Assembly: GCA_030604635.1 (NCBI GenBank)
Contig: JAUVVL010000001.1
Coordinates: forward strand, 1 to 60,204
DNA: 60,204 nt
Direction of reading: 5' to 3'
Origin: Desulfobacteraceae bacterium
GTDB taxonomy: Bacteria > Desulfobacterota > Desulfobacteria > Desulfobacterales > UBA11574
A program made the position numbers and the translations under genes. The notes under the pieces were generated by a model. The model saw only the letters and a list, made by a program, of their open reading frames with translations. It searched no databases and was not told the DNA's origin. Shown here piece after piece: positions 2,896 to 47,994 of this stretch (positions are counted from its first letter, which is position 1; each line of letters opens with the position of its first letter).

Positions 2896-2907
2896 AGAGT
2901 GTATATT

Positions 2908-3285
2908 ATGATCAAACTTGATTTTAGTAAGATGGACGGCCTGATACCGGCCATTGTTCAGGATTATCAAACCGGTGATGTATTAATGCTGGCATTTATG
3001 AATCAGGACGCCTGGGAGGCAACGCTTGCTACAGGCAAGGCAACGTATTACAGTCGCACCAGGCAAACTATCTGGGTAAAGGGCAAAACTTCCGGCAATG
3101 AACAACTCGTAAAAGAGGTCAGGATAGATTGTGATGATGATACTGTACTGTTGAAGGTTGAACAGATCGGCGGTGCGGCGTGTCACACAGGACACAAAAG
3201 CTGTTTTTTTAAAAAAGTTGAAGATGGGTCTGCCAGGATTATAGGAAAGCCGGTATTCGACCCTGAGGAGATATATAATCAATGA
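2908..3285 (+). CDS. hisI: Phosphoribosyl-AMP cyclohydrolase
   Basis: HisI-like sequence ([58 protein letters not shown]). ATG at 2908 follows AAGAG. GTG at 2899 is an alternative start. Confidence 0.9.
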
Positions 3286-7463: not shown

Positions 7464-7578
7464 ATATTACGAAAAATCAAACTTGTTATAATTGCACTTC
7501 CGGATATTTATGTCCAGGGTGTGGTCGGACAAGTTCAGTCTTTTAATCACTTTTTGTTTTTTCGTTTTCTTTGCCATC

Positions 7579-8001
7579 TCAATTCACTTTGATATTTTCC
7601 CGGCCGCCGTACTCATTCTCCCTCTCCCCTCGGGGAGAGGGCCGGGGTGAGGGGGTAACATTCCTATCCAAAGACGAAAGAACAACGGACAAAACAGACT
7701 CTGTTTCTGTCAAAACTTCATTGTTCCAAAAGCGCAAGACTCTGTATCCTTTATCTTCCAAATAACCAGATCGCTTAGCATCTAATTCCAACTGCCCGGC
7801 ATGCTGTCCACCATCGACCTCAACAACAAGTTTTTTCTCTAAACAAACAAAATCAACTATGTAAGAACCTATAGGGCGCTGTCGACGGAATTTATATCCG
7901 CCGAGTTGACGATTACGAAAATATCGCCATAATAGTCTTTCGGCATCAGTCATATTCTTTCTAAGTTTTCTGGCAAGATGCTTAATTGTTTCACCCCTCA
8001 C
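7579..8001 (-). CDS. DUF559 (Vsr-like endonuclease fold) domain protein
   Basis: 140 aa. MTDAERLLWRYFRNRQLGGYKFRRQRPIGSYIVDFVCLEKKLVVEVDGGQH plus GYRVLRFWNNEV. The C-terminal tail PSPRPSPRGERE is encoded by the flanking repeat. Confidence 0.85.
   Translation of the reverse strand: MRGETIKHLARKLRKNMTDAERLLWRYFRNRQLGGYKFRRQRPIGSYIVDFVCLEKKLVVEVDGGQHAGQLELDAKRSGYLEDKGYRVLRFWNNEVLTETESVLSVVLSSLDRNVTPSPRPSPRGERENEYGGRENIKVN
7620..7655. repeat. GC-rich palindromic repeat (CCCTCTCCCCTCGGGGAGAGGG...GGTGAGGGGG). Its inverted partner is at 7992-8018.
   Basis: Read from the sequence. The two copies bracket the DUF559 ORF in inverted orientation, about 22 of 25 matching by eye. Confidence 0.7.
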
Positions 8002-31230: not shown

Positions 31231-34023
31231 TCAATTCACAGTCTGAACGCCAACGCACTTGTGTCGGACATTGATAACCGCGTCATAGTCTGAACGGATC
31301 TTTGCTTCATGATTCCTAGTGAACATTTTTAGTTTATCCGCATTAAACAATATAGGTTCTAATGATTCAACCTTTTTAAAGTCTTTATGAAGCAGAAAAT
31401 CCAAATCGTCTGGAACTTCTTTTCCATCAATAACAAAACTCTGATACAGCTCTCGTCTGGTTCCATCCTCAAATTCAATCGTAAAAAGATGTCGAGATGT
31501 CAGGCATGGGGCTACACCATCACATTTTATATTCGACAATTCACCGGATACGGATTCGCTCTTATAGAAGTCTAATAAAGCATCTATAAGCGTGTGCCCG
31601 ATCCCGAGTAAATCCACATTTTTTTTGCGGGTAGCGGTTTTCCTGGAAAAGGTAACGTTTTCATATCGAGATGCCACGTCTGAATATTTCCTTAGCGCAG
31701 GAGGAACAACAATTTGAATAATATCTCCAGAGGGGATGAAGCTTCCTCCCAGGCGCAAGATCGCCTTTTCCGTGAATCGTTTCAAATCTTTAAGCGTAAA
31801 CTTCCCTTCTAGCTCTCTGTAGTATTCCAGGTTGAATGTTGATAGGTCCTGTGTAAGCTGCAAGAGGGCTTGGCTGGCATCTTTCGCTGCCTCGATGGCT
31901 TCGGTGATCTCTTGCTCAGTTCTTTCGTAGTCTCGATATAGAAGGGCCTCCCTGTAGAGAGATGTGTAATTTGTGCTTGATCCTAATAATCCGAGTATCT
32001 CCGACCGGAAATCCTCACTTACGTCACCTGTGACAGCATCTACTTTACCAATGGTCGTTGCTATCTCCAAAAGTTTTTCCTCGAGAATTGCGTAAACCTT
32101 TTCTTCTATGGTTCCTTCAGCAACAAGGTGATACGCCTGAACTGTATCGGCTTGGCCGTATCTATGGATTCTACCAATACGCTGTTCAACAGCCATAGGA
32201 TTCCACGGCAGATCATAGTTGAATAGAATTCTACAAATCTGAAGGTTGATTCCCTCGCCTCCTGCAGAGGTGGAGATGAGGAACTGTGCGCCATTCTCAT
32301 CCCAGAAAGATTCACAAGATGCAATTTTATCCTCCAATGGCCCACCTCTTACAATTGCTATCTTCTCAGGATCATAGTATTTACCTATCTCGTCTTGAAG
32401 GAAATAGAGAGTTTCAAGGTATTGGGTAAAAATGATCATCTTTTCATTCTTATGTTCCCTTCTGATTTGTTCAATAGCTCGAATTAATGTGTCAAATTTC
32501 CGGTCAGGTCCTTCGTCCACAAGGTCTATAAGTTCTTTTATTTTTTCCTCCTCATCAGGGATATTGGCCGCGGCTTCAATGATTCCTTCTCCCGATTCCA
32601 TAGCATCCAGAGCCCAATGGGTGACTTCTTCCTTAAACCGGGGCCTTTTCATAAGACGCTGTTTTAGTCTTGTGATATATGAATCAGCTTCCGTATAGTC
32701 AATGATAGACTCTCGATAGGACAGTAACTCAGCAACTATTCTCCGCATCTCTTCCTGATAATTAATGATTTTAGATGAGATTTCCGGCCTGGTTATCGCG
32801 CCATATGCACCACTTTCGAGAGACATCTGTTTGCGGGCGTAAAGTGCAATCAGGCGCCGCCTCAATGCCTGTTTGATGGCCCTTGGACTGGAGGACATAA
32901 TCTTCTGAAAAGTAGCCATCACAAAGCCCACTGCGCGCTGTTGTTTAGTGGTTTTGTCTTTTCCTGCGCCGGCAGCATCGTAACCTTCTTTAAGATATTC
33001 GGTAAGTCTATCGTAAAATCTCTGCTCACGCATGGAGAGTTGAAATTTTTGGGTGTGCACCTGTCTCCGCATGAAAATCGGATCGCCCTGGGCATCTGTA
33101 ACTTCCTTTTTTGTACGCCGAAACATTACCCTGCCCAGGAGACCTCTGTGATCCATCATCGCCTCTGGTTCTTCAAAAAGCTGATCATCCAAAAGTTGAA
33201 TCAAGGACCAGAATTGGTAAGCATTCCCCTGGTGAGGAGTAGCTGTCAGAAAAAGGAAATCCCGGGCTTTTCCCTTGATTTTCTCTGCCAGTCGATAATT
33301 CTGGGTGATATCTATTTTTTTGCCGTATCGCTTCCTGCTCAAATGATGGGCTTCATCAAAAACAATCAAGTCCCAGTCCGGACCTTTCATCATTTTTTCC
33401 AAACGTTGTGGTTTTTTGATCGTGTCTATGGAAACAATTACTAAACTGTGTCGTTCCCACACATGAGGATTGGTATCGGAAAAGTCCCGGCCGAAGATGT
33501 CAAAAAAAATCCTGAAACAATCCTTCATTTCATTCTGCCAGTTAACGGTAAGACCTGCGGGGCAAATGACCAGTATTCTCCTTGCTTCTCCACGTGCTAA
33601 AAGCTCCTTAATAATCATTCCCACTTCAATGGTTTTCCCCAGGCCCACTTCGTCGGCAATCAAGTATTTTCGCCTACGGGAGCTGACAATCTGATGGGTT
33701 AACAGAATCTGGTGAGGAAGGAGGTCTGTTTTACTATTGGAAAGTTCACCCCCGGAATTTTCAAGGGGTAGCTGGTATGCTAATTGTTTCAGAAAAAAGT
33801 CTGTGGGATGATCAGATTCACCGTTTTGATACCGCTGAAAGATATCAGCGACAGGCGTAAGACTACCCTGGGGAAAGGTTTCTAAAAACCGCTTTCCGTC
33901 TTTTTCAAAAACCACGTCAACCTGGTATTCTCCACCTGATGCTTCTGCAACCTGGAGCACCTCGCCGGTACCCAGTTCAGGACGGTATGTGACTCTTACT
34001 TTTGTATCTTTTTTGATTTGCAT
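31231..34023 (-). CDS. SNF2-family helicase/ATPase with an N-terminal Tudor/SH3-like domain
   Basis: 930 aa. LLPHQ, LIADEVGLGKTIEVG, VFDEAHHL, FLTATPHQG, STSAGGEGINLQ, YDLPWNPMAVEQRIGRIHRYGQ. Confidence 0.92.
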   Translation of the reverse strand: MQIKKDTKVRVTYRPELGTGEVLQVAEASGGEYQVDVVFEKDGKRFLETFPQGSLTPVADIFQRYQNGESDHPTDFFLKQLAYQLPLENSGGELSNSKTDLLPHQILLTHQIVSSRRRKYLIADEVGLGKTIEVGMIIKELLARGEARRILVICPAGLTVNWQNEMKDCFRIFFDIFGRDFSDTNPHVWERHSLVIVSIDTIKKPQRLEKMMKGPDWDLIVFDEAHHLSRKRYGKKIDITQNYRLAEKIKGKARDFLFLTATPHQGNAYQFWSLIQLLDDQLFEEPEAMMDHRGLLGRVMFRRTKKEVTDAQGDPIFMRRQVHTQKFQLSMREQRFYDRLTEYLKEGYDAAGAGKDKTTKQQRAVGFVMATFQKIMSSSPRAIKQALRRRLIALYARKQMSLESGAYGAITRPEISSKIINYQEEMRRIVAELLSYRESIIDYTEADSYITRLKQRLMKRPRFKEEVTHWALDAMESGEGIIEAAANIPDEEEKIKELIDLVDEGPDRKFDTLIRAIEQIRREHKNEKMIIFTQYLETLYFLQDEIGKYYDPEKIAIVRGGPLEDKIASCESFWDENGAQFLISTSAGGEGINLQICRILFNYDLPWNPMAVEQRIGRIHRYGQADTVQAYHLVAEGTIEEKVYAILEEKLLEIATTIGKVDAVTGDVSEDFRSEILGLLGSSTNYTSLYREALLYRDYERTEQEITEAIEAAKDASQALLQLTQDLSTFNLEYYRELEGKFTLKDLKRFTEKAILRLGGSFIPSGDIIQIVVPPALRKYSDVASRYENVTFSRKTATRKKNVDLLGIGHTLIDALLDFYKSESVSGELSNIKCDGVAPCLTSRHLFTIEFEDGTRRELYQSFVIDGKEVPDDLDFLLHKDFKKVESLEPILFNADKLKMFTRNHEAKIRSDYDAVINVRHKCVGVQTVN

Positions 34024-34056
34024 TTAAGAGATGATATCAGTTCCTATTGCTAAAAT

Positions 34057-34731
34057 TTAACAAAATGAGAAAAACACATGAAACAGAGTTATCGGTTTTC
34101 CGACCGAGGGTCTGTTATGTTTTGAGCGGTAACAATTATCGAGATTCGTTAAGTTATCAACATGTTTCCAGTTGCCATCAAAGCATAGCCAGAGCAACTC
34201 TGTGTTTTTTATAAACGTGTCATGCGCTTTTTTTGCCCAGTATGACGGTGTTTCCGATTGGACGTAACCTAACATCCCTGCCTCATCCTGTTCACGTGCA
34301 TAATTTCCGGAAAGGAACTGCCTCAACCCATCCGGCCCGAGATACTTGTCCATTTTAGCATGAGTTTGAGAAGAGAGCCTTTTGGCTTCGAAAGGGTAGC
34401 GTGGATGCTTGCCGGCGCCTGTACGTTCAAATTCGATGTCCAGCTTAAGGCGTCGTTTTCCTAGCCTCCCAGGAGCATTGATTCTAGGATCGTCATGTAT
34501 TGCATAATAATGAGTCCATGAGGGACTTAAACGATCTTCTATCACATTCCTGATCTCTCTTATGAGTTCACCTGTAATATCTTCTTCCTCGGAATCCTGG
34601 AAATCCGGGGAATCAAGACGTTCATATCCCAGCCTAAGCAATTCAAAGACTTGTCTGCGAAAACTTTTATGATATTCGTGTCGATCATCAGAAGCGCTTG
34701 TGCGTACTTGAAAGCCACTGCTTATAGTCAT
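34057..34731 (-). CDS. PD-(D/E)xK-like putative nuclease
   Basis: 224 aa. IHDDP...LKLDIEFERTGAGKHPRYPFEAKRL (D-x17-E-x-K). Its ATG abuts the MTase stop (TAGATG). Confidence 0.45.
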   Translation of the reverse strand: MTISSGFQVRTSASDDRHEYHKSFRRQVFELLRLGYERLDSPDFQDSEEEDITGELIREIRNVIEDRLSPSWTHYYAIHDDPRINAPGRLGKRRLKLDIEFERTGAGKHPRYPFEAKRLSSQTHAKMDKYLGPDGLRQFLSGNYAREQDEAGMLGYVQSETPSYWAKKAHDTFIKNTELLWLCFDGNWKHVDNLTNLDNCYRSKHNRPSVGKPITLFHVFFSFC

Positions 34732-37700
34732 CTATTTGGTATCTCCGGTCATGGTCAGCTTTTCGGCAATGAATTCATCTGCATCAATGAGAGCCTGACT
34801 CTTAAGCCAGGAAAGTCTTTGCAGCGGTTTTGCAAAGCAAGTAGTGCGGCCTTCAAATAGCTTGAGATTCCGGTTAAAATATATCCACTGCCCCTGTTCC
34901 CTTAAAAGACTCTCTCTGATCCTTTTGAACTCTTTTTTTGTGTCCTGATCTTCAACCCTGACAACACTCACCGGACCAGCAGGCGGTTTTCGGGAATGTT
35001 CTATTTTTGCAATAGCTAAATCATTTGAATAGAAAACCGTAATGCGATGCTGATCTTTTATATCGCCGTTCAGAAAACTATCAAGTTCCGCTTTTAATAC
35101 ATTTGCGTATGCGCGCATTTCTGTTTCATCTGCTGGCATAGTGGCCTCTTTAGCTATCCTGCCTTCGTTCAGGTTTTTACGCACATGGAGCAAATCCTGA
35201 ATCAGCCAGCGTTCGCTCTGATTAATACCCATAAGGGCATAGACTCTTTCGTTTAACTGTTCCAGCAATGGCAAAGCATCAATCATTTCTTTACGCGGGT
35301 CGAATAGCGTATTTTGTGATTCCCTTGAAGTTGCCCGGACGAGTTCATCATGTAAAGATACCCATTCGGAAAGCTCATGGGAAGACAGATCATCAAGTGG
35401 AATTGGAAGATTCTCTATATCGCTATTGTTTGCGCGATCCCGTTCAATTCCCAATATTGGGGATGATAGAAATTGATGATAGATGAAAAAATCAGAGGCG
35501 AAATATAGAGCTAACGCCTTTAATAGGCTATTATCTCCAGGACTTCCAGCAATACCGATTTGTCTGTGCGGAACTACGATAAATTCGTCTGAAAACACAG
35601 CAAACCTTCGCGCCGCATCAACAATAATGTGTGGTGGATAGCATGCTTTTAGCGGTGTTTTCCCGCGCCCCTTTCTTACATAGGCTCTTGAAGCTACTAC
35701 AGGTTTCAACGCCTCTTTGGGAAACGCAAATATTCTACCGCACTTACTCAGCACACTCATATCTAGTTCAAGTTTGCCTTCTATTTCCGCCAAAGGTTCT
35801 ACTGGTTCTTTAGCATATTTTGTGCGAAGAACAATGCCCTGATGTATTATCAGTCGATGTTGGGCTTTGAATTCAGAAAACGATGGATAACGTTTTTGCA
35901 GGCTATTCAAAAGGTGTTTATCCCGCACAGAGCCCCACATAGCGAGCTTCCATGGCAGACTATCTCCCGAGGCTGCATCCATACGAGAAACCTCACGAAT
36001 TTCATCGGCATTGACGATAATGATCCATAGCTTTTTATCTTGCCTGTTATCAACCTGATACCGTGATAATTGATGAACAGCAAATGGGGCAAATGTAACG
36101 ATATGATGAGACGAGCAGTTATTGTCTTCTTGCCGAATAGAGTAAAAAAATGCTGCCGCGGGGCTTGTAGAGCCTTGAAATATAAGATGCCGGAGATTGG
36201 AAAAATTCACAATAGACCAGACGTCCATCCGGTCGAAAAATTGCTGCCTGAATTTTGTTGCATGTGTTTTGAACAATGTAACAGCAGGCAATAACAAGCC
36301 TACCACTCCCTGGCTGGAAAGATGTCGCGTTACTTCCCAGGCAAAGGCTTCGGCTATCTGATTATCGCTGGTTGGAAATTGATCTTTATTTTTCTTAATC
36401 CAATCAAGGGCAGACTTATCGCCTTTCTCTAGTTTATTAGCTTTCAGTTGTTTCCATGGAGGATTGCCAACGATCCAGTCAAAGCTGTTCCCTGGCTTGT
36501 TCTCCTCCCATTCCGAATTCGGCTTGAAAAAGCCGTCCTTACAACAAAAGATGTTCTGATTACGCAAAGCAGGCAGTTTAAATTTTTTATACCCCGGTTT
36601 TTCAAGGTCAGGAGGGCTAACATAATCAAGAAGTGTGAGGATAAGGCTGAGTTCTGTTACTCCGCATGCATCCTCGTCCACGTCCATGCCATAGATGTGG
36701 TTGGTCATTAGATACCGCAATTCGGAAGGTTGAAGCCGTTTTTCAGGATTCTTTGTTTGTTCTCGCTCAACAAGCCTTCTATAGCATTGGACCAGGAATG
36801 CCCCTGAACCGCACGCAGGATCAAAGGCTTTCATGCCCTTTTGGAATGGGCGTTTTGAGTCAAGTTCATCCAGGACAAAATTTACTAAATGAATAGGGGT
36901 GTAATAGGCGCCCTGACTTCTTCCCTTTCCTTCAGCGTGAAGAAACTGCTGATATACAATAGAAAGGGTCTCTATCGGAATATACTCAAAGTTGTATGCC
37001 TTGAAATCCAGATGCATCTGATCGGATTTGGGATCGTCGCCGAGGAAAACAGACGATACTTTTTGGATATGTTCAACTTTAGGGGCAGGCCGACCTTTTC
37101 TTGGAACAGGAAAAACGACTCCATTCAGCCAATCTTCAAGCCTATCGTTAACCGCATAAAAGCCCTCAATAGTCGAGTTGCGACCAAAAACCGATTCTTT
37201 ATCAATCGACCATTGCTCCAGCTTGCGATCTGAAAGGATTTTTCTATCTCTTAAATAATATAGGTATACAAACTTGCCGATAAGAGCGTGAGCCGTGTGT
37301 CGGGGCAATCCATTGCTGCGCAGCCATGTACCAAGGGACCTGAGACTTCCAAGTAATCTCCTGTCAACCCTCTTATTTTGAGGAATCTCTTTCTCCCATC
37401 TCGTCCACAGGTCCCCTTTGTTAATTGAGTCGGATGTAAAATCAGAAAGCTTTTCAAGGACTTCGTTTGTCCTCTTTGCGACTTTAAGAATGGATTGATT
37501 TTTGTCCTCACTCAATCTGGGGTCAAACTTGAAGCCAGGATAAAGACGAATAGTTTTTGGCGTTAGAACAATAAGAAATGGGACGATATTCTGATTCCAA
37601 ACCAGTCTGTGAAATTCTCTTGCCTTTTGCTCCGTGTCTGCCTCACATACATACACCACGGGAATTATAGATTCATGTGAGGGATGATTTCTCTCCGGTG

Positions 37701-37851
37701 TTTTTAATGTATAAACGCCGTGCAAGTCGCATTTTTCACTGGCAAGACGAAATATGTGGGAGTAACCTGGGTGCTCGTAAAGACGCTCACCTGAGAGATA
37801 ATATGGAGAATCAGTATAGTTCAGGCATCTTATAAGGTGATCTATATCCAT
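34732..37851 (-). CDS. Large gamma-class N6-adenine DNA methyltransferase (type IIG/IIL or PglX-like architecture)
   Basis: 1039 aa. GAYYTPIHLVNFVLDEL, FDPACGSGAFLV (motif I), IYGMDVDEDAC and WIVGNPPW (motif IV), with long N- and C-terminal extra domains. Confidence 0.85.
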   Translation of the reverse strand: MDIDHLIRCLNYTDSPYYLSGERLYEHPGYSHIFRLASEKCDLHGVYTLKTPERNHPSHESIIPVVYVCEADTEQKAREFHRLVWNQNIVPFLIVLTPKTIRLYPGFKFDPRLSEDKNQSILKVAKRTNEVLEKLSDFTSDSINKGDLWTRWEKEIPQNKRVDRRLLGSLRSLGTWLRSNGLPRHTAHALIGKFVYLYYLRDRKILSDRKLEQWSIDKESVFGRNSTIEGFYAVNDRLEDWLNGVVFPVPRKGRPAPKVEHIQKVSSVFLGDDPKSDQMHLDFKAYNFEYIPIETLSIVYQQFLHAEGKGRSQGAYYTPIHLVNFVLDELDSKRPFQKGMKAFDPACGSGAFLVQCYRRLVEREQTKNPEKRLQPSELRYLMTNHIYGMDVDEDACGVTELSLILTLLDYVSPPDLEKPGYKKFKLPALRNQNIFCCKDGFFKPNSEWEENKPGNSFDWIVGNPPWKQLKANKLEKGDKSALDWIKKNKDQFPTSDNQIAEAFAWEVTRHLSSQGVVGLLLPAVTLFKTHATKFRQQFFDRMDVWSIVNFSNLRHLIFQGSTSPAAAFFYSIRQEDNNCSSHHIVTFAPFAVHQLSRYQVDNRQDKKLWIIIVNADEIREVSRMDAASGDSLPWKLAMWGSVRDKHLLNSLQKRYPSFSEFKAQHRLIIHQGIVLRTKYAKEPVEPLAEIEGKLELDMSVLSKCGRIFAFPKEALKPVVASRAYVRKGRGKTPLKACYPPHIIVDAARRFAVFSDEFIVVPHRQIGIAGSPGDNSLLKALALYFASDFFIYHQFLSSPILGIERDRANNSDIENLPIPLDDLSSHELSEWVSLHDELVRATSRESQNTLFDPRKEMIDALPLLEQLNERVYALMGINQSERWLIQDLLHVRKNLNEGRIAKEATMPADETEMRAYANVLKAELDSFLNGDIKDQHRITVFYSNDLAIAKIEHSRKPPAGPVSVVRVEDQDTKKEFKRIRESLLREQGQWIYFNRNLKLFEGRTTCFAKPLQRLSWLKSQALIDADEFIAEKLTMTGDTK

Positions 37852-37995
37852 TAAGTGTGCCCTCCGTTCAAGGAAATAGCCTAATCAAAGCTTAAAACTA
37901 AACCTTTATCACATACAATCACTTTTAGTAAACATCCGTTCTGTTTAAGCTCTATGAAGACGGTTAAAGAAGTTTAATATCTCTACGCACTATTG

Positions 37996-38649
37996 TTATC
38001 TAAATTCCCTGCAAACCCATATAACTTTTCCAATAATGCGTACTCTGTTGATATCCTCATTCTCCAAATAAAGAGATTTATATTTAGTATTATCACTAAA
38101 CAAGACGAGTCCTTTCGGATGTTTTTCCACCCTTTTAACCATGATAGTGTCGTCGATTCCCACTGCATAGACAGCACCGGCCAATACATCTTTCTGGGCC
38201 TCATCAATAAGTACGGTATCCCCCTCTCTGAATTCCGGCTCCATGCTGTTGCCGAAAATATCCAGCAAAACCATTTTTTCAGCAGTCCCTTTTCTTGACA
38301 GCCAGTCCATTCTAAAGGAATAATATCCTTCGATTTCAGATCCGACTTCAAAAGAACCGCCGCCTGCACACAGCCTGGCTTTCACCTTGGGGACCTTTTT
38401 GAATTCAGATTCATTTGTACTGAAGGATTTAATGAAAACAGGGCCGATCCCCTCTTCAAGCCAATTGGGATTTAGACCATATTTGCGATAAAGCAGCAAG
38501 ATCCACCTGGCCGGAATTGAGTCCTTTTTACGGGCCTGGGTAATGGCTGACGGGTTGATTCCGAGAGCGGAAGCCAGCTCATTTTGATAGCGAAAGCCCG
38601 TAGCCTCGTAAACCTTATGAATAAAAGCGTCAAATCGAGTAAGGGGCAT
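37996..38649 (-). CDS. LexA/CI-like repressor (XRE HTH + S24 peptidase)
   Basis: 217 aa. QNELASALGINPSAITQARK (HTH), GNSMEPEF (Ser) and IMVKRV (Lys). Confidence 0.88.
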   Translation of the reverse strand: MPLTRFDAFIHKVYEATGFRYQNELASALGINPSAITQARKKDSIPARWILLLYRKYGLNPNWLEEGIGPVFIKSFSTNESEFKKVPKVKARLCAGGGSFEVGSEIEGYYSFRMDWLSRKGTAEKMVLLDIFGNSMEPEFREGDTVLIDEAQKDVLAGAVYAVGIDDTIMVKRVEKHPKGLVLFSDNTKYKSLYLENEDINRVRIIGKVIWVCREFR

Positions 38650-38685
38650 GAGGTTTGATGCATCCGTGTTAAAAAATAAATATAA

Positions 38686-38720
38686 TTGATATTTATAAAT
38701 TAAGATTTTATAAATATCAA
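38686..38720 (-). promoter_or_regulatory. Perfect 14-bp inverted repeat TTGATATTTATAAA-N7-TTTATAAATATCAA, 36 nt upstream of the S24 repressor start. Candidate operator.
   Basis: Read directly from the sequence, in an AT-rich promoter-like region. Confidence 0.6.
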
Positions 38721-38868
38721 GTTTTTTTCAAAAGAAAGTACTATTTACATTGAAAATACGATTTTCTTAGGTCTACGTTTTTGGTGTAAAAATTGACGGT
38801 TTGAGGTTTGTAAAGAGTGCTATTTTTCGGTTTTACTTCAGCAAATCAATACGTTAGTTTGATGCGAG

Positions 38869-38997
38869 TTAAAAGACCAGAAAGCGGCACAGCCAGGGAC
38901 TCTGAGCCTGTAGAGCTGCTCGCCACCTAAGCACCGCGCCACTACCCAGTTCGGGACGATATGGAACTTTTAGTTTTGTATCTTTTTTGATTTGCAT
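38869..38997 (-). pseudogene. Degenerate 5' remnant of an SNF2 helicase gene, paralogous to the start of 31231-34023
   Basis: MQIKKDTKLKVPYRPELGSGAVL versus MQIKKDTKVRVTYRPELGTGEVL. DNA similarity extends over ~100 nt by eye. It begins 13 nt after the stop of the 142-aa gene. Confidence 0.8.
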
Positions 38998-39010
38998 TTG
39001 ATAACGCCTA

Positions 39011-39439
39011 TCAACTCGATAGATTAAAGCTGGTAGTGTAAACCGGGAATCCTCTAATTTCCTGTTTTCTGGGAGTGCCAAAAATGAAATCAAGCGGGAA
39101 AGTCTCCCCTCGATATTCCACCCAAAAAGAGTCTCCCTTGACCAGCCTCCCTTTGCAAACGATCTGAACCTCGATTTTTTTCTTTTCAAGATCAGTTGCC
39201 GCGGATTGAAGGACTTTATGGATATCAAGGGCAACGGCGTGTCGCTTTTCCCGTTCCGCTAGATAAAGAACATCATCAATGCCCACAACCATGAAAGAAG
39301 AATACCTTGATAGCCCCTCAGACCCGGCATTAAGTTCCCGAAGAAAATCAAGAAGACCGATCTTTATCTCGTAAGGAGCTATACCATCTTCTCTATAAAG
39401 CTTCAGATATTTTTGTTCCAGGATTTCATAGCCTTTCAT
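39011..39439 (-). CDS. Small hypothetical protein coupled to the DUF1156 methylase
   Basis: 142 aa starting at MKGYEILEQ. Its ATG lies 1 nt after the methylase stop (TGAGATG). Confidence 0.6.
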   Translation of the reverse strand: MKGYEILEQKYLKLYREDGIAPYEIKIGLLDFLRELNAGSEGLSRYSSFMVVGIDDVLYLAEREKRHAVALDIHKVLQSAATDLEKKKIEVQIVCKGRLVKGDSFWVEYRGETFPLDFIFGTPRKQEIRGFPVYTTSFNLSS

Positions 39440-39440
39440 C

Positions 39441-42419
39441 TCAAACCTCAATGATATTGAGTACTTTGTTGATTGGTCCCTGAAAAGTAGGGTTTTTATC
39501 CAGCAGATACTCAAAAGAAACCCGGATATTGGGGATAACAGGCTTAAACTCGTTTAGCCACGGAACCAGGTTTTCGCCTGCCTCGGCAAGACCCATCAGG
39601 TAATGGAGAACATCGACCAGGGCCACGTTATCAAATTTGGCCTCCTCCAATTCAGGAAAAAGCAAGAGCTGGCTCAGGCTTTTAAATTTGCTTTTAAACA
39701 ATTTGGCCAGATCCGTATAGCGTTCATTCGGAAGCTTTACCTCGTAAGTCCTGCCTCGTTTGGCCCGGCCTTTTCTGATAACACCGGCTTTAATAAGAAC
39801 CTCGGGCTCCATAATGCCCCTGGTAGTCTTATGCACTTCATCACTTTTGATCTCTTTCCTGTCACAAAGACAGGTGAGATATATGTAACTTGCCGGATCA
39901 ATATGCTCAAGCTCCGAAGGGAGGGGCTGTTGAGTGGTGACGATCTGCTCCACCATCATCCGTATGGATGTAAGAGCTTCACCAAGAGGTACAACAGCGC
40001 CTTTATAGTCCACGATCATTCCATAATGCCTGCTGTAAAGTTCAAGGCATTTGCCAATGAGGATGATGTTGACGTCGTCCGGAGAAAGTTTTTCTTTGCC
40101 ATATCTTCCGGCCTCTATCATCTCAATTTCTTTACGGGCTTTCTTGCGAATTTCTTCTCTGACCCCGGCCCAGGATCGCTGCCGGGTCTCTGATTGACCA
40201 TTGCGCTTTTTACAGACATGGATAAGATCGTAGGCAATGGACTGTTTTCCCATGAGGTGGAGGGAACTTTCAGATTCTCCGTGTATGGGATATATCGCTT
40301 CAATCACAAAACCCGCATTACAGAGAGAATCCAAAAGGGATTCCCAGGCGCTCCCTTCCCTGTGATGGAAAGTAAACACCATTAAGCCGTCATCTTTCAG
40401 ATTTTCACAGCACCTTCGCCAGGCTTCTGTAAGACCTTCTTGATAGTCTGATGCGGTTTTCCCACGGGTTGGGTTTTCAATAATTTCTTCAGCCTTGGGG
40501 GTGATTTCCGGAGCAAAATGCGGGTATGTTCTTGAAAGAATCAGCCTCAGCCAGACATAGAAGAAATCAGCAAGTTCGGAGTAGTTGACGTTTCCGGCAT
40601 AGGGAGGATCTGTGATTACTAAATCTGCTTTTAAGGGGAACTTCATGTTTTGAGATGTTGTACAGTCAAGTGCACAATTTCTCCGAGTGCCCTGAATTTT
40701 TTCTTGTGAATTTTCAAAAACACTCTTATTGCCTATGATCTTTCGGTCAAATGGTTTTAAGTTATAATTTTTTCCTCTAATGATAGCATCAAACAAGGAA
40801 ATAAATGTTCCCATTCCTATTGAAGTTCCCCAAACGTTACTTTCACATATCGTTGCCTTGGGTTGAAAATCATGCCGAGCAAAAATCTGTCTAATACAAT
40901 CTCGTTGCCAAATATAGGTACAAAAGTCACTCATATTATTCAAAAGATTATAAAACCCGCTCAACAACATCTCCTTCAAAACTTGGTTCTCTTCTTCCCC
41001 AATAGCCGCAAGCAGCGTACTCAGGCACAACAACTGCCTGGAGTTGAACATCTGATGCCAATATGCATAGTGATGCTCTAACAACCTATGCGTTTCTTGT
41101 CCGTCTGGAATTTCACTCTTCGGATAAGGCAGCCTGTCCTTTTCCTCTCCCCACCTCCTCTCTGCATTCTGATATTTTTTGAGATCAGCAGGTGTGATCC
41201 TTTTGAAGAATTTGCCTCTGTTATTATGGATATTGCATTGATGTGCTATTATTTTCTTATGTTTCAAAAGGTCTCCATGTATATCCAATTCTTCTTTATC
41301 CCCCGCGCATTCCGCACAATAACCCTCTACAGCATAAGGCCTGGTTGGAAGGAGTTGATTCTCGGGAAGCTTTCGGATGGAATTAATAATCTTATCCTTG
41401 GTCCCGCAGGAAGGGCAAATAAAAGCGCCTTTTCCTGTATTTCCCTGTAAAGGCTTGCAGCTTTTTGAACAAACAGGACAAGACACCTCTTCCGGCAATG
41501 TTCCACGATACTGCCAGACAGCATAGCAGTGGGGGCACAATAAAATTGTTAGAGGAACCTTTTTCCTCGCCTTTTTTAAATTGTCTGGATTTGAACCATG
41601 CAAATTGTTGGTTTGCGCACACCAGGGACACTTGACGCTATATTCGATCGAATTATACGGCGCCCAACGCCTGTTGTTTCTTTCCTTTCCGACCGCATCC
41701 CTTGCATTATTTATCATCATGGATTTTTCGGCGACTAAAGATGCCATATCCATATCCAGATCGAATGTTTTTTTGCATTTGACGCATTGATAATCCGGCA
41801 AATAGCGGACGGAGGGGGACTTTTTGGCAATAATGTAATTTGGAAACAAAGGAACTTCTTTAAGGCAGGTAGGGTTCGTACAGATAGCCGACTTGACCCA
41901 GAAAGTATATATGATATCAGCTTGTTCGCGACCTGCCCCGCAACAGGGACATTCGGTTTTGTAATGACCGAGAAGTTCTTCCTTCAAAGGCTTTCCACTT
42001 GAAGTGGTCCTCACCTCCAGCCTCTTGAATGCGGCCTTTAGCTCATCTATATCTACCGGCTCCACTTCGGTCTTTACAATGAACCACGCCACGGGGCTGA
42101 GATCGATGCCGGTGACGTGACAACCCAAACGAAGGGCCTCCACTATGGTGGTTCCTCCGCCCATAAACGGGTCCAATATCCTGACTCCGTTGGTATCGGG
42201 ATCATTGGTGTGATCCTTGTAAAACTCAGTCATTATATCTGTTCCGGCAGGTTTCATGGCGGCCAGCAGAATTGCTCGAAATACGCACGAAGCCCTGCGC
42301 GCAAACCATTTGTGCATCTTGTAAATAGGTTTAAAGGCGTTTCTTTCCGGTATGGCAAGCCGGTTGATCTCGACAACCGGGAAACTTTCTTCAATAGCCT
42401 TTCTAATGCTGTTTTCCAT
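39441..42419 (-). CDS. DUF1156-type adenine-specific DNA methyltransferase with Zn-ribbon insertions (PglXI-like)
   Basis: 992 aa. The N-terminus FPVVEINRLAIPERNAFKPIYKMHKWFARRASCVFRAILLA is DUF1156-like. DPFMGGGTTIVEA (motif I), multiple CxxC pairs, and VITDPPYAGNVNY (motif IV). Confidence 0.85.
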   Translation of the reverse strand: MENSIRKAIEESFPVVEINRLAIPERNAFKPIYKMHKWFARRASCVFRAILLAAMKPAGTDIMTEFYKDHTNDPDTNGVRILDPFMGGGTTIVEALRLGCHVTGIDLSPVAWFIVKTEVEPVDIDELKAAFKRLEVRTTSSGKPLKEELLGHYKTECPCCGAGREQADIIYTFWVKSAICTNPTCLKEVPLFPNYIIAKKSPSVRYLPDYQCVKCKKTFDLDMDMASLVAEKSMMINNARDAVGKERNNRRWAPYNSIEYSVKCPWCAQTNNLHGSNPDNLKKARKKVPLTILLCPHCYAVWQYRGTLPEEVSCPVCSKSCKPLQGNTGKGAFICPSCGTKDKIINSIRKLPENQLLPTRPYAVEGYCAECAGDKEELDIHGDLLKHKKIIAHQCNIHNNRGKFFKRITPADLKKYQNAERRWGEEKDRLPYPKSEIPDGQETHRLLEHHYAYWHQMFNSRQLLCLSTLLAAIGEEENQVLKEMLLSGFYNLLNNMSDFCTYIWQRDCIRQIFARHDFQPKATICESNVWGTSIGMGTFISLFDAIIRGKNYNLKPFDRKIIGNKSVFENSQEKIQGTRRNCALDCTTSQNMKFPLKADLVITDPPYAGNVNYSELADFFYVWLRLILSRTYPHFAPEITPKAEEIIENPTRGKTASDYQEGLTEAWRRCCENLKDDGLMVFTFHHREGSAWESLLDSLCNAGFVIEAIYPIHGESESSLHLMGKQSIAYDLIHVCKKRNGQSETRQRSWAGVREEIRKKARKEIEMIEAGRYGKEKLSPDDVNIILIGKCLELYSRHYGMIVDYKGAVVPLGEALTSIRMMVEQIVTTQQPLPSELEHIDPASYIYLTCLCDRKEIKSDEVHKTTRGIMEPEVLIKAGVIRKGRAKRGRTYEVKLPNERYTDLAKLFKSKFKSLSQLLLFPELEEAKFDNVALVDVLHYLMGLAEAGENLVPWLNEFKPVIPNIRVSFEYLLDKNPTFQGPINKVLNIIEV

Positions 42420-43399
42420 TATTGATTTACCTTAAGTTCGATCCAGGGCGTTATCATTTCCATCAATGACAGCCCGCCATGCCTGTAAAGTCTGCTTGCC
42501 GCTTCGCCGGATGATCTTGTTCTTACCCGGCCTTTGACCATGGCTAGATTTTGCGATTGGACTATAAAAATATCATCACTTGCAGGTGTGTCTGGTTTTT
42601 CTTCCAATGGAACATTCCGGTCGTTTCCAAAATAGGCGTTTAAAGTCTTCATTTCAGATGGGCTTCGGGGAAAATCCATCCCTGTTCCGAAAAAAATGTA
42701 TCCATGGTCGCTTGTGATAATGATCTTCTCTTTTCCTTTTATGGACTGGACAGTATTGATCCAAGCTGTTTCAAAAAGAGCATGGATATTCTCAAAGTGG
42801 CCCTCAAATTTGGCTCCGCTGTCTTTGTACGTTACATCCGGGAATGAAGACCATACAAGCAGCGGGGAATTTTGATACTCCCCTGAAATGGGGTGGGTAA
42901 TATTCTTGCTGTAGATCGTGACAATTCCTTTTTCTTTGAGCTCTTTTCTGGTTTCAAGCTGAGACGGCGCAATATGACCACAGGGGAGTTCCCGGTGGAT
43001 AAAATCGATGGTTTCGCTGGGTATGGCGGCCTGCGATGCACCTGTCAAAGAAACGGGAAGCCCTGATTTATCTGCAAGGGTCAAAATCATCGGCACTTCT
43101 CTGATGGACAGCCCGTCGAAAACAACTACCGCAGTATCAGGATCGGAGAGCGCTTCCAGCAGATTTCCTGAGGTGTCCGGGGTAGAAAGAAGCTCCCCAT
43201 AAATCCTGTCAGCGGCTGACGCGACTAACATTTCAAAACGATTAACCTTTTCCTCTCCACCTCGAAGGAATTCGATTGGGCTTAAGTTGCGATAACGCTC
43301 AGGGCTCCATACCTCTTCCAGCAGCCACTCTATTATCCAAGCCAGACGAGGGCCTGATTCGATCAACCTGTTGAAAAGGGCCTGGTCCAGGGTATCCAT
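42419..43399 (-). CDS. Compact PglZ-domain (alkaline-phosphatase superfamily) protein
   Basis: 326 aa. VVVFDGLSIRE, IPSET, IITSDHGY and YRHGGLSLMEMITP. Its stop overlaps the methylase start (TAATG). Confidence 0.75.
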   Translation of the reverse strand: MDTLDQALFNRLIESGPRLAWIIEWLLEEVWSPERYRNLSPIEFLRGGEEKVNRFEMLVASAADRIYGELLSTPDTSGNLLEALSDPDTAVVVFDGLSIREVPMILTLADKSGLPVSLTGASQAAIPSETIDFIHRELPCGHIAPSQLETRKELKEKGIVTIYSKNITHPISGEYQNSPLLVWSSFPDVTYKDSGAKFEGHFENIHALFETAWINTVQSIKGKEKIIITSDHGYIFFGTGMDFPRSPSEMKTLNAYFGNDRNVPLEEKPDTPASDDIFIVQSQNLAMVKGRVRTRSSGEAASRLYRHGGLSLMEMITPWIELKVNQ

Positions 43400-43402
43400 T
43401 TT

Positions 43403-46063
43403 TCACCTCTTTGCCTGTTTTAAGACTTCCACTTCCAGGTCCACAGAAAAATCGGCATCATTAATGACCGGAAGTGATTCAATCTGCTGCTCAATCTGTG
43501 ATTTCGAGAATGTTCCGGTCTTTGAGATGACAATTTCTGCCGTAATATCACCCTCACCGCTGAGAGATCCCCTAATACCAGAAGAAATGGTGCTGAGATC
43601 GCCGATATTGGTTTTTTGCAGGAATATTTTGTAAGTAACTTTGGTAATGATCCCCTCCTCGCAGTCCTGGAGCCTGAAAGCTGTCTCTTGCCTGAGATTT
43701 ACGATACTGTTCTGAGGGGGTATTTTAATAGGCAGAATCTCCTTTTCCGGGCATTCACAAGGATCTTTTCCGCAGTTGGAACAGACCGCAGGAGGTGTCG
43801 GACATTGGCAGGGGAATTCTCCACAAACCGGACATTTCTGAGGCGGTTTTGGGCATTGGCAGGGGAATTCCCCACATTTGGAACATGGCTCCGGTTTTGA
43901 TGGTTCTTCAAAAGGATCGGTCACTTTGGCATTGAATAGTTCGGTTTCATTCAGAGTAGGGCTGACATGGCAAAAGTTTCCCGCGCTATGCTGAATGCCG
44001 ATAACACCCTCCTTGCAAAGATTGCGTATGGCACTTGAAACGGCTCTTACAATCAGGGGAACAGGAAAACCGAGGGTAGCCCGATATTCGGCGTCTATCT
44101 CCTTGACCAAAAGATTCTTTATCTGGTCGAGCCTACCCTCGAGATGTTCCTTGAAGCGCAACATCGGGAAATAGTCCTGATTTAGCTTTTCCAAAACTTT
44201 ATCTTTTGAAAGATCTCCGGGAAGAGGTTCAAGCTCCACCTGGTCTTCAGCGACTGAACTTCCATACTTTTCCCAGCTTACAAAGACCAGACCGGCCTTC
44301 TTGATCCTTTCGATGATATACCTTTTATCCGTACCGGCAATGCGATGATAATCGTTTCGCCGAGCCGTATTTTTCGTACTTTCCGCCAGGTCCTTCGCTG
44401 CAAGAAGTCGTTTAGCCCACTTGAGCAAGTCCTTATCGTTTGCGATTTGAAATCTATCATCCTTTGGTTCCAAAAGAAGAATCATGTTTCTGACATCCAT
44501 TCCATAATAAATCTGATGCCTTTCCTCTCGAGTGAGCCTTCGACCTGTTAAAACATAGCGGAGGCGGGATTTATCGAACTGTTTTAATAATTCCTGGGCT
44601 TGTTCTATTGAATCGAAAATAACCGTATTTACAGCTTCCCTGAATATGTCCGCCTTCAGAATCACATATAATTCCTCGCGGGCCTGCGCATCCGAATATT
44701 GAAGGGATTTGAATTCTACTTTTGCTTCGGAATTTTCTTCCAGGTCAAAATAGTAGCGGCCTTCCTGGTGATGAAAGTAGGAGGCGTACTTTTGAAAGCC
44801 CATCAATGTTTGTTCAATGTCATTGATATCCGTTGAAGGCGATAAAATATCCCGGACGAGATTTTCCCTGGCAACACCGGTATCGGCTCCAACACCGGTC
44901 AATGTATAAAGAAGAACGGCAGGCGCCAGCTGGCGGGCTAGTGGCGTTCTGGGAATAAGATCTTCCATGTTCTCTTTGGCACGGTTGATCAGGTCACCGC
45001 TCAAGTCAAGATCTTTCAACATAATCGCAGTGGCCTTATCCTCAAGGGAAACATCACCAGGTGTTATGATATCATTTCCGGTATGGGTTAATCTGATCAG
45101 GTTGCCGAGAAAGGCTAAAGCGCCACGTACGTTTTGAAAACCTCCCCTTGCCGGTATTTTTTTGAGGATAATCTCCATGAGAGATGGCGAGAAAGGATAA
45201 GTATCGTTGAATTTGGCTTTGAGCTCTTCCTGGTCAACCGGCGCATGCCTGTTCCACAATTGGATGTAACTCCCAAGCACCGGCAAAATAGAAGCTCTGT
45301 CAAACTGTTTATAGTTTTCAAAAAGCCTGTGCAAAATAATGTGGCTCTGGTCTTTGGCGTTATCAAATTGAACCACGCATCGAGGAACACGTTTCAGGGT
45401 ACTGCCCGGTTCTTGCTGAGTGCTGTATATACTCGCAAATAGGGTTACCTGTCTTGAACGGTTACTAAATTCAGAAAGCATCTGAAGAAAGGCTATATTC
45501 TGGGCTTGTAGTGCGGGATCACCAATGACCTTGATGCCTTGCTCCAGCTCATCGAAGATCAGGATGATCTTTTTATCTCCAAGGGCTTTCTCAAATTCAG
45601 ACAATTTCGGATGAGTCTTGCCCTTCTTAACCTCTGTTCCAAGTGCCTCGAATATCATATTCCAGATGGAATCATGAGGATCATCGGTGAACTTATTGAT
45701 TAGCACAACAGCATCCTGGAAAATCTCACATGATAATCCATTTTCATTGAGCCATCCCTGAGCAACCTGGGGGTGTTTAAACAAATGGTAAATCATCAAA
45801 AGCAGGTGGGATTTACCACTGCCTTTGAGGCCCTCGAAAAGAAAAAGCCCGGAAGAATCCCTTGAAGATGAAAAACGAACATTGATTTCATACAGGACCT
45901 TTTTGACATCCGAAGTAGGGTAAGTAAGTTGGAAAAAATCATCCGGGCGAGCCTCGATTTTGGTTCTGGATTCATCTTTCAAGTTCGCCAGATCGATAAT
46001 TCCTTCAATTCCCTCTTCAGAAATCGCCTCTTGCCGTGGTTTCAGAAATGCGGAGTAGCCCAT
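43403..46063 (-). CDS. DUF499-type P-loop ATPase (BrxC/PglY-like)
   Basis: 886 aa. Walker A GLKGSGKSHLLL and Walker B ILIFDELEQG. Three tandem CxxCG(E/K)(F/D)PC(Q/E)CP units sit near the C-terminus. Confidence 0.75.
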   Translation of the reverse strand: MGYSAFLKPRQEAISEEGIEGIIDLANLKDESRTKIEARPDDFFQLTYPTSDVKKVLYEINVRFSSSRDSSGLFLFEGLKGSGKSHLLLMIYHLFKHPQVAQGWLNENGLSCEIFQDAVVLINKFTDDPHDSIWNMIFEALGTEVKKGKTHPKLSEFEKALGDKKIILIFDELEQGIKVIGDPALQAQNIAFLQMLSEFSNRSRQVTLFASIYSTQQEPGSTLKRVPRCVVQFDNAKDQSHIILHRLFENYKQFDRASILPVLGSYIQLWNRHAPVDQEELKAKFNDTYPFSPSLMEIILKKIPARGGFQNVRGALAFLGNLIRLTHTGNDIITPGDVSLEDKATAIMLKDLDLSGDLINRAKENMEDLIPRTPLARQLAPAVLLYTLTGVGADTGVARENLVRDILSPSTDINDIEQTLMGFQKYASYFHHQEGRYYFDLEENSEAKVEFKSLQYSDAQAREELYVILKADIFREAVNTVIFDSIEQAQELLKQFDKSRLRYVLTGRRLTREERHQIYYGMDVRNMILLLEPKDDRFQIANDKDLLKWAKRLLAAKDLAESTKNTARRNDYHRIAGTDKRYIIERIKKAGLVFVSWEKYGSSVAEDQVELEPLPGDLSKDKVLEKLNQDYFPMLRFKEHLEGRLDQIKNLLVKEIDAEYRATLGFPVPLIVRAVSSAIRNLCKEGVIGIQHSAGNFCHVSPTLNETELFNAKVTDPFEEPSKPEPCSKCGEFPCQCPKPPQKCPVCGEFPCQCPTPPAVCSNCGKDPCECPEKEILPIKIPPQNSIVNLRQETAFRLQDCEEGIITKVTYKIFLQKTNIGDLSTISSGIRGSLSGEGDITAEIVISKTGTFSKSQIEQQIESLPVINDADFSVDLEVEVLKQAKR

Positions 46064-46561: not shown

Positions 46562-47659
46562 CTAACTGGCTATTGACTTGAGACGAAACTTGCGCGTTAA
46601 ATCATTGTGCCATTTGTGTTGAATGTGTCCATCGCGTTGCAGCCTGCCAACAACAATGCCCGGGCAGATGTCAATGGATTGTGCAAAGGCGACAATGTCG
46701 CCTTTATAAAATTGCCTCTTTGCCACGAAAGTCTTGTATTTACTTTCAGGTATTAATTTGTTTGCCGCAAATCTATTTGCTGCTTCCTCAGCCTCGTTTG
46801 TGCCCATATCGACTTCATCGATAAATACACTGGTTTTTCCGTGAAGGATTATGTGACCTGCTTCATGAAAAAAAGTAAGCCAGAAATGGTCATCTCTCTT
46901 ATAGCGGAGGCTGAGCATGATCAACGCTTTATCCGGGCCGAGCCATCGCGTTACGCCGCTCAGACGGGTCTTTGGAAGTTCGGGAATAAATACAAGTGCA
47001 ACGCCGGAATTTCGACAGAGCTCTTTCATACGTGGCTCAAAAACCTCCGGGTCTTCCCCGGTAAGGAATCGTATCTCCTGCAATGCATTTTTAAATGTGT
47101 TCTTGTCGAACGGAGATGTTTTAATATTTTCCGCTTCAATTTCACCGATCCGGAGCCATGCCGACACCGATTCTTTTGAGCTTGTAAAGGTTGGTGATTT
47201 TCTGTATGAAACAGCAATGCGCTGAAACTGGGCCTTCCAGGCCTCTACGCTCGCAACGCCAAAGAAATCCAGAAGTTCTTCAACTTTTTCGGCAAGGGTT
47301 TGTCGTCTGCGAATAAAGCCTCTTTTCGCAAGCTCCGTCAGGGGAAATTTCTTTGCCCATTCTTTTTTGTTCTCAAGCATTCGCCGGTCGGCAATTTTAG
47401 CAACATGCAGCCGATAATATGCGTTAAGATTATTCCATATATTTGCAGATACGCCCAAAACCCGCTCGAAGTGAATAGCGGTTTCAGGGGTAACCGGAGC
47501 TTTTCCATGGATGATTTGGCTGACTGTCTTTAAGGATAGGCCGGTGCGTTCGGCAAACGCAGTCCTTGTTATCCCTCGGGCTTCAAGAGTCTCTTCTAAA
47601 ATCTTCCCCGGATGAATGGCGTAGTCGGGAGTATATTGATTCAGGGTTGTCGCGGCCAT
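46562..47659 (-). CDS. higA: HigA-type antitoxin: XRE HTH fused to an ImmA/IrrE metallopeptidase domain
   Basis: 365 aa. ERTGLSLKTVSQIIHGKAPVT (HTH) and FFHEAGHIILHG (HExxH). Confidence 0.8.
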   Translation of the reverse strand: MAATTLNQYTPDYAIHPGKILEETLEARGITRTAFAERTGLSLKTVSQIIHGKAPVTPETAIHFERVLGVSANIWNNLNAYYRLHVAKIADRRMLENKKEWAKKFPLTELAKRGFIRRRQTLAEKVEELLDFFGVASVEAWKAQFQRIAVSYRKSPTFTSSKESVSAWLRIGEIEAENIKTSPFDKNTFKNALQEIRFLTGEDPEVFEPRMKELCRNSGVALVFIPELPKTRLSGVTRWLGPDKALIMLSLRYKRDDHFWLTFFHEAGHIILHGKTSVFIDEVDMGTNEAEEAANRFAANKLIPESKYKTFVAKRQFYKGDIVAFAQSIDICPGIVVGRLQRDGHIQHKWHNDLTRKFRLKSIAS

Positions 47660-47994
47660 TAATGATAGTCCTCCACTCCAAGAATTTTGATTGCTGTTAT
47701 TTGTGTTAAGTCAATTCCGCCATCGTCCTTTCTTGGCAATGGCTCATGATCCGGTTTGAATATGAGACGATAAGGATGTTTTAAATCAACTGCGAATTGA
47801 CCGCTGCGTTTTCCGCTGAGTTCATGTCTTCGTTCAGGTTTTGTATACGGCACTTCAGCCAATACCGATGATGCTCTAAGTACTGCCATGCGGCGCATTA
47901 TCAAACGTGCTTTCTCTGCTCCGAATTCTTTTTTCAGCTCTTTTTCAGAATTAAAGACCTTCTTAAGAGTTTTATTTCTGAAAGCCATATCCAT
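47659..47994 (-). CDS. higB: HigB-like (RelE/ParE superfamily, 'killer protein') toxin
   Basis: 111 aa. HELSGKRSGQFAVDLKHPYRLIFKP. 1-nt overlap with the antitoxin, with the toxin upstream as in higBA. Confidence 0.75.
   Translation of the reverse strand: MDMAFRNKTLKKVFNSEKELKKEFGAEKARLIMRRMAVLRASSVLAEVPYTKPERRHELSGKRSGQFAVDLKHPYRLIFKPDHEPLPRKDDGGIDLTQITAIKILGVEDYH

Follow-up and report, generated by a model that had tools for sequence, protein, structure and literature searches.

We analyzed a 60,204-nt stretch of DNA from a Desulfobacteraceae bacterium (contig JAUVVL010000001.1, positions 1 to 60,204; hereafter, the window), focusing on a cassette of three co-oriented genes on the minus strand, in which a repressor gene is followed by a DNA methyltransferase (MTase) gene and by the gene of a 224-aa candidate nuclease. 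The motifs of the upstream gene product support its assignment as a complete autocleavable repressor of the LexA/CI type, with an S24 peptidase domain, and a perfect palindrome in front of the gene has the architecture expected of the operator of this repressor, spanning the -35 to -10 promoter elements. The comparison of related loci gives good support to a link between this MTase-nuclease family and S24/SOS control, a link which appears to be optional. The full mechanism, in which self-cleavage of the repressor would free its promoter and raise the expression of the pair by read-through, has in our opinion a slightly better than even chance of being correct.

The repressor gene (37996-38649, minus strand) encodes a protein of 217 aa, which was characterized by Pfam searches and by alignment with its relatives. 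Residues 8-69 match the helix-turn-helix (HTH) domain Phage_CI_repr (PF07022, E 4e-7, above the cut-off) and residues 92-210 match Peptidase_S24 (PF00717, E 5e-21). The catalytic dyad consists of Ser135 in the motif GNSMEPEF and Lys172 in VKRV. The self-cleavage site, Ala95-Gly96 in VKARLCAGGG, lies between the two domains and 40 residues before Ser135; the corresponding distance in Escherichia coli LexA is 35 residues. The Ala-Gly site, the Ser and the Lys are conserved in every aligned S24 relative, including all those linked to an MTase. An HTH-S24 protein of 217 aa with an intact Ser/Lys dyad, upstream of an MTase-nuclease pair, had already been proposed in the preliminary description of this DNA, and the domain matches and conserved motifs bear this out.

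Canonical LexA was ruled out as the identity of the window protein. Its score against the LexA equivalog TIGR00498 is 48.6 bits (cut-off 110.95), with the S24 half alone aligning, and the LexA winged helix (PF01726) has no match at the repressor gene. In its own assembly, which is 92.7% complete, neither a second, chromosomal copy of the CI-type S24 gene nor a LexA winged-helix match above the cut-off was found. The other S24 genes of the assembly are a umuD gene beside umuC (contig C230 of genome G000, positions 2165-3200; locus L169, positions 666-1699) and a partial S24 match (C162); the cassette repressor is the only HTH-S24 repressor found there. RecA, the potential cofactor, is encoded in the same genome (C318).

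Direct reading, shuffling and a genome search were applied to the candidate operator. The perfect 35-bp palindrome TTGATATTTATAAA-N7-TTTATAAATATCAA (38686-38720, minus strand) lies upstream of the repressor gene exactly where a 14-N7-14 inverted repeat had been reported, and it is the longest perfect inverted repeat of the window (14-nt arms, 7-nt spacer). Arms of at least 14 nt appeared in none of 40 dinucleotide shuffles of the whole window, and in one of 5000 shuffles of the local core, which has a GC content of 18%. The palindrome occurs once in the 3.5-Mb assembly, allowing up to three mismatches, and no further operator copies were found elsewhere in the window at up to one mismatch. This uniqueness in the genome suggests that the repressor is a local regulator and not the master of a regulon. 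The repressor promoter lies inside the palindrome on the minus strand, with the -35 hexamer TTGATA at 38720-38715, a 17-nt spacer and the -10 hexamer TATAAA at 38697-38692; these hexamers were read by eye, and the consensus scanner gave no flag to a -10 element ending in A. A repeat ATAAATAT-N5-ATATTTAT overlaps the palindrome, whose inner core has the form 8-N7-8.

The promoters of all S24-family genes share the sequence TTGcat-N17-TATaaa, and three kinds of palindrome can be observed on them. In the chromosomal sister clade (L154-L160), a 35-bp palindrome TTGCATTATATAAAC-N5-GTTTATATAATGCAA (15-N5-15), perfect in L156, L159 and L160, starts at the -35 hexamer, in the same register as the 14-N7-14 palindrome of the window. 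At arm positions 4, 5, 6 and 8 the sequences of the two palindromes are not the same, and every change in one arm is matched by the complementary change in the other; symmetric binding sites of proteins are expected to vary in this way, and bare promoters are not. Some further chromosomal S24 clades carry the sequence TGTTTA-N6-TAAACA at the -10 element. In the nearest relative of the window cassette (L007), 12 of the 14 arm positions are kept. At one locus of the sister clade, L158, a perfect hairpin of 83 nt with 38-nt arms (positions 4871-4953), resembling a miniature inverted-repeat transposable element, stands in place of the usual promoter/operator before the chromosomal S24 gene.

The MTase gene (34732-37851, minus strand) encodes a protein of 1039 aa, which Pfam, PADLOC and fold comparisons identify as a gamma-class N6-adenine DNA MTase with a C-terminal target-recognition region. 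Its best family match is REase_MTase_IIG of PADLOC (E 5e-54). The N6_Mtase/Eco57I/MmeI_Mtase match covers residues ~295-570 and is collinear with MmeI; it includes the invariant residues D344-x-x-C347-G-S349 in FDPACGSG and N463-P-P-W466 (MTase motifs I and IV), and the target-recognition domain is in the same chain. The AlphaFold model (pLDDT 74) matches CamA, BrxX/PglX, BpuSI, DrdV and LlaBIII, and the similarity to the type IIG/IIL and BREX enzymes has a Foldseek probability of 1.0. In line with the preliminary description, which had pointed to long terminal regions without an assigned function, residues 1-290 and 650-1039 match no Pfam family. In type IIG enzymes, the region corresponding to residues 1-160 is the position of the nuclease domain. 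No Asp, Glu or Lys is invariant in this region among 16 homologues of 46-84% identity (position 70, for example, is E, Q, K or D), and this lack of conserved catalytic residues argues that the N-terminal domain contains no nuclease site in cis.

The gene of the 224-aa protein (34057-34731, minus strand) directly follows, its start codon abutting the MTase stop codon (TAGATG). The protein belongs to no family in Pfam, NCBIfam or PADLOC, and has no match by PDB sequence search; residues E49, D98 and E115-A116-K117 are invariant among 27 sequences of 38-90% identity. The predicted structure (pLDDT 86) has weak top Foldseek matches to the restriction endonucleases MunI, SwaI (probability 0.9), BamHI, PaqCI and FokI, all with E >= 0.04 and TM <= 0.38. 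Based on the invariant E49/D98/E115-x-K117 residues, the 224-aa protein is likely to be the nuclease of the pair, of the PD-(D/E)xK type. The preliminary description had considered the opposite assignment, in which the MTase is a type IIG/IIL enzyme and the 224-aa protein no more than its accessory; this assignment was rejected, because the catalytic residues are absent from the N-terminal domain of the MTase and present in the 224-aa protein. We read the pair as a putative "split" type IIG derivative, that is, an MTase-specificity subunit with a decayed cis nuclease domain and a PD-(D/E)xK protein cutting in trans. A search of 50,697 phage records and 72,556 plasmid records gave no homologues of the nuclease, and the cassette contains no phage genes, for which reasons the assignment of the regulator as a prophage or plasmid repressor was discarded.

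For the comparative analysis, the loci of 80 of the ~325 genomic family members were surveyed. Of 85 related loci, 82 have the MTase gene and the 224-aa gene side by side, and the sequence of the remaining three ends before there is room for both. The pair spans at least six phyla, including Desulfobacterota, Planctomycetota, Acidobacteriota, Pseudomonadota and Binatota, and it would represent an apparently undescribed two-gene restriction family in which the type IIG nuclease domain decayed and a separate small nuclease took over. Upstream neighbors were counted where 1.5 kb or more of upstream sequence was available, which was the case at 58 genome loci. An S24 protein is the only recurrent neighbor (11 of 58 loci), and every other upstream neighbor is unique. 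Six of these S24 proteins are of the CI type and five are LexA (TIGR00498 scores of 165-202 bits, cut-off 111).

Four of the five lexA genes overlap the MTase start or lie 4-31 nt from it, and the same four are preceded by SOS boxes, TACTG-N10-CAGTA (TACTGC-N8-GCAGTA-type), beside a TTGAC or TTGCA -35 hexamer. These tightly coupled loci belong to a member of the Terriglobia, another metagenome-assembled genome (MAG) of the Acidobacteriota, a Pseudomonadota MAG and strain NaphS2. Their MTases form one clade over three phyla, which suggests that the lexA-MTase-nuclease operon moves as a unit. In the complete genome of Desulfonema magnum, the sole lexA gene lies 208 nt upstream of the pair. At this locus (L013, 5000-6000), two copies of the heptamer ATCGAGT/ACTCGAT precede lexA, and an inverted pair of it flanks a hairpin in the 208-nt spacer between lexA and the MTase gene; this heptamer may be the LexA box of the lineage. 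D. magnum 4be13 and strain NaphS2 are cultured carriers of the LexA-headed operon.

The distribution of the CI-type proteins was analyzed with a metagenome scan using the window S24 protein, which yielded 80 loci. S24 copies of at least 75% identity, plus a few of 64-69%, precede the MTase pair. Conversely, no MTase gene lies downstream of 36 distinct copies (61-70% identity) whose downstream sequence extends for 1.5 kb or more, and those of them whose neighbors were identified lie in a conserved housekeeping synteny (hisHF, prfC, ferritin, sensor kinase). In the clade of the window protein (11 rows, support 99/94) the pair is always present, in unrelated flanking contexts. Linkage to the MTase also occurs in two more lineages, one of them (L010/L004) within a chromosomal clade and the other (L016/L023) at an identity of 49%. 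The MTase-linked label has to change three times on the S24 tree, fewer than in any of 500 shuffles; on the MTase tree, four CI-type and two LexA-type changes are required, and no shuffle gave counts as low. The related loci thus indicate that S24 repressors, true LexA proteins among them, joined this restriction family several times, and this recurrence suggests that restriction may be tuned by DNA damage.

At several chromosomal loci (L004, positions 6716-7900, and L010, L096, L109 and L135), the S24 homologue is followed by the gene of a conserved 60-100-aa protein (..YHG..RDWI(L/F)F(D/N)SV(E/Q)EAQ(E/D)FF), and several of these loci add a gene for a hydrophobic peptide of ~31 aa. The arrangement is suggestive of an SOS operon under a non-canonical LexA-like protein, with a small gene for a membrane protein of the division-inhibitor type.

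In the window, the repressor and MTase genes are separated by a spacer of 144 nt (37852-37995, minus strand), in which a scan found no terminator or attenuator and the RNA structure is not significant (z = -0.46); read-through is therefore possible. The spacer also contains a promoter-like element proximal to the MTase, TTTACT-N16-TGtGATAAA (37905-37932, minus strand), with an extended -10 element, identified by direct reading and conserved in relatives. Homology with three loci lacking S24 (L006, L001 and L002) begins exactly at this element.

Self-cleavage is stimulated by RecA in the characterized S24 repressors. In the mechanism that we propose, the three genes would form a dual-promoter operon, in which a weak constitutive promoter gives the pair its basal expression and the strong, autorepressed S24 promoter adds more. 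The CI-type repressor, most likely as a dimer or a pair of dimers, would bind the 35-bp palindrome and repress its own promoter. Filaments of RecA on single-stranded DNA (ssDNA), produced by DNA damage, by phage replication or by self-cutting by the system, would cause the repressor to cleave itself at Ala95-Gly96. The freed promoter would then be transcribed into the pair, and maybe also into the downstream helicase gene described below, so that expression of the pair would rise with the MTase first. The MTase, with its catalytically dead domain at the N-terminal nuclease position, would contribute the specificity domain, and the translationally coupled PD-(D/E)xK protein would supply cleavage in trans.

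It is important to mention the observations that weigh against such control of the pair. No S24 neighbor is present at 47 of the 58 family loci (81%), nor beside the closest MTase relatives (L001, L002 and L006, 82-84% identical); the latter nest within the S24-bearing MTase clade, which suggests that the repressor can be lost and is dispensable. The pair keeps a conserved promoter-like element of its own at 37905-37932. A search for additional half-site copies, proposed in the preliminary description for 37852-37995, near the MTase gene, and for 34024-34056, found neither an operator nor a half-site there at up to three mismatches, and S24 control could thus act only by read-through from the S24 promoter. 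The operator sequence drifts within the cassette clade, so that the exact 14-mer is probably young, and L087-L090 bear other inverted repeats. Moreover, a 35-bp palindrome with half-site centers ~21 bp apart is unusually long for a single HTH dimer. At L004 and L010 a distance of 630-660 nt separates the pair from the chromosomal S24 operon that precedes it, and the two could simply be neighbors. Finally, classical systems reduce restriction after DNA damage, and this restriction alleviation goes in the opposite direction. The earlier proposal that a LexA/CI-type repressor controls the pair therefore holds in part: the repressor is complete, the operator architecture is present and the linkage is recurrent, whereas the repressor is facultative and no operator lies near the MTase.

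Several of these observations would also fit an S24 protein that regulates only itself, or that is a captured chromosomal LexA-like regulator, with the pair driven solely by its own promoter. The conserved element directly before the MTase, the absence of an operator near it, the existence of close relatives without S24 and the housekeeping synteny, without MTase, of most S24 homologues of 63-70% identity point in this direction. We consider this explanation unlikely, if worth serious attention, because the linkage recurred independently with two S24 architectures, because LexA-type genes that overlap the MTase or lie 4-31 nt from it leave no room for a separate promoter, and because the window spacer lacks a terminator and the three genes travel together through many contexts. 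Another explanation is that S24 acts like a C protein (the small controller of many restriction-modification, R-M, systems), as a damage-independent controller of establishment or homeostasis whose capacity for self-cleavage would be a vestige or would answer to a different signal. In a naive host, such a system would give an MTase-first burst, until the accumulated S24 protein shuts the strong promoter and the weak one stays active. The gene order, with the regulator before the MTase and the MTase before the nuclease, and the autoregulatory palindrome that covers the promoter would suit this role, as would the need of a mobile cassette to establish itself in new hosts, and some LexA-like proteins act without RecA, as described for IrvR (PMC7101444). 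Against it, none of the linked S24 proteins departs from the Ala-Gly site or from the Ser/Lys dyad, and the LexA-type relatives have canonical SOS boxes, which would be read also by the LexA/RecA circuit of the cell; we regard this explanation as distinctly unlikely.

It seems highly improbable that the pair serves the DNA-damage regulon itself, for example in damage-induced, methylation-dependent processing or as a suicide module, and not in restriction of phages. Its repeated position behind lexA genes with SOS boxes, the absence of the 224-aa protein from described families and the absence of copies from phages and plasmids would agree with such a function. However, type IIG/IIL and BREX (bacteriophage exclusion) MTases with a target-recognition domain have a matching architecture and matching folds, the distribution across phyla is patchy and the settings are those of defense islands (the window itself, and L007 with an HsdS-like gene beside it), and 81% of the loci have no SOS regulator. 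The preferred reading, control of the pair from the repressor promoter through self-cleavage, would mean that a self-cleaving SOS-type repressor heading an R-M-like operon gives restriction an input from damage or infection. A broader proposal, which we put forward tentatively and doubt more than we believe, is that, on at least three independent occasions, an unnamed, widespread split type IIG family came under the control of RecA-sensing S24 repressors, and that SOS-induced R-M is a general, selected strategy, the inverse of restriction alleviation. The repressors would be CI-like proteins in Desulfobacterota, and in Acidobacteriota, Pseudomonadota and again Desulfobacterota they would be true LexA proteins with SOS boxes; SOS induction might boost methylation as well as cleavage once ssDNA gives the sign of infection or self-damage.

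The cassette comprises positions 34026-38929. Positions 34026 and 38751 are the exact limits of homology with L007 and define the mobile unit; from the comparison of loci, the trio is co-mobile in differing contexts and the cassette appears horizontally mobile. In the window it splits an operon consisting of the genes of a DUF499 ATPase (43403-46063), a small PglZ (mini-PglZ, 42419-43399), a DUF1156 MTase (39441-42419), a 167-aa protein (39011-39514) and an intact BrxHII-like SNF2 helicase (31231-34023, minus strand). The interrupted operon matches the Type-3 BREX-related system of Rakesh and Krishnan (PMC12839542). A repeat search showed that the 5' end of the helicase gene (33956-34025, minus strand) has a remnant copy at the upstream boundary (38930-38999, minus strand; 70 nt, 87% identical), which contains the first 68 nt of the gene. 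The divergence of these flanking repeats suggests one-sided homologous recombination with a donor allele and not a target-site duplication. The helicase gene lies 33 nt behind the nuclease gene and may depend on transcription from the cassette. No empty site was found in 60 related genomes, which contained no close homologue of the helicase.

The possibility that the pair is a component of the neighboring Hma/BREX-related system was rejected, as the BREX-related proteins have no counterparts beside the pair in related loci. In 165 such loci, the BREX-related genes of the window have no match except for fragments of the helicase and 167-aa genes in L001 and L086. L001 (8381-11290), a close relative which has no S24 gene, shows a decayed version of the window arrangement: behind the nuclease gene lie a UPF0175/DUF3368 toxin-antitoxin pair and an internally deleted remnant of the same helicase gene, its 5' 160 nt joined to its 3' 1 kb. 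Just upstream of the BREX-related operon of the window (46562-47994), the gene of a HigB-like toxin precedes that of a 365-aa fusion of a HigA-type HTH and an ImmA/IrrE-type metallopeptidase. The fusion has PADLOC matches to PD-Lambda-2_B, RmrA and CapP, and is a second, different candidate for a damage-type regulator in the same island.

To our knowledge, the mechanisms known to control R-M systems are C proteins, autoregulation by the MTase and antisense RNA, and none of them responds to the cellular state. Dedicated regulators that sense DNA damage or ssDNA are known for other defense systems, namely CapH/CapP and the WYL regulators BrxR and CapW. Additional damage- or ssDNA-sensing regulators reported for defense systems are DriD (PMC9186387) and a Moraxellaceae regulator (PMC12392091). 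No LexA/S24 controller of R-M appears in the review of Mruk and Kobayashi (PMC3874152), and no description of an R-M or other defense system controlled by S24/LexA was found in the literature searched.

The window operon resembles the type II R-M systems controlled by C proteins, such as PvuII, BamHI, AhdI and Esp1396I (PMC3874152), in that an HTH regulator heads the R-M genes and a palindromic operator lies over its own promoter. C proteins, however, are Xre-type HTH proteins of ~80-100 aa with no protease domain or signal input, which usually activate and then repress the nuclease gene (PMC3874152), whereas the window regulator is a 217-aa HTH-S24 protein with self-cleavage motifs, is optional and heads the MTase and not the nuclease; the operon was not assigned to this class. 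With the type IIG/IIL enzymes (MmeI, 5hr4; BpuSI, 3s1s; DrdV, 7lo5) and with PglX/BrxX of BREX, the window MTase shares, in the same order, an N-terminal alpha/beta domain, a helical connector, a gamma-class N6A MTase (FDPACGSG, NPPW) and a C-terminal target-recognition domain. It differs from the former in having no invariant Asp, Glu or Lys in the N-terminal domain and in the separate 224-aa PD-(D/E)xK partner that is always downstream, and from PglX in that no BREX genes accompany the family.

The repressor shares the HTH and S24 domains, the Ala-Gly site, the Ser/Lys dyad and a palindromic operator over the promoter with LexA, with the non-canonical LexA of Bacteroidetes (PMC8565304), with phage CI and with SetR of SXT. 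Unlike canonical LexA, it scores below the equivalog cut-off, lacks the winged helix and has an operator that is unique in its genome. It resembles CapH/CapP and the WYL-type regulators as a dedicated repressor beside an immune operon, which would couple expression to damage or infection signals. Whereas CapH/CapP relies on a metallopeptidase acting on its partner, and the WYL proteins on ligand binding, the window repressor would act by S24 self-cleavage on a cargo of the R-M type, and would thus parallel these regulators, yet through a RecA/S24 circuit.

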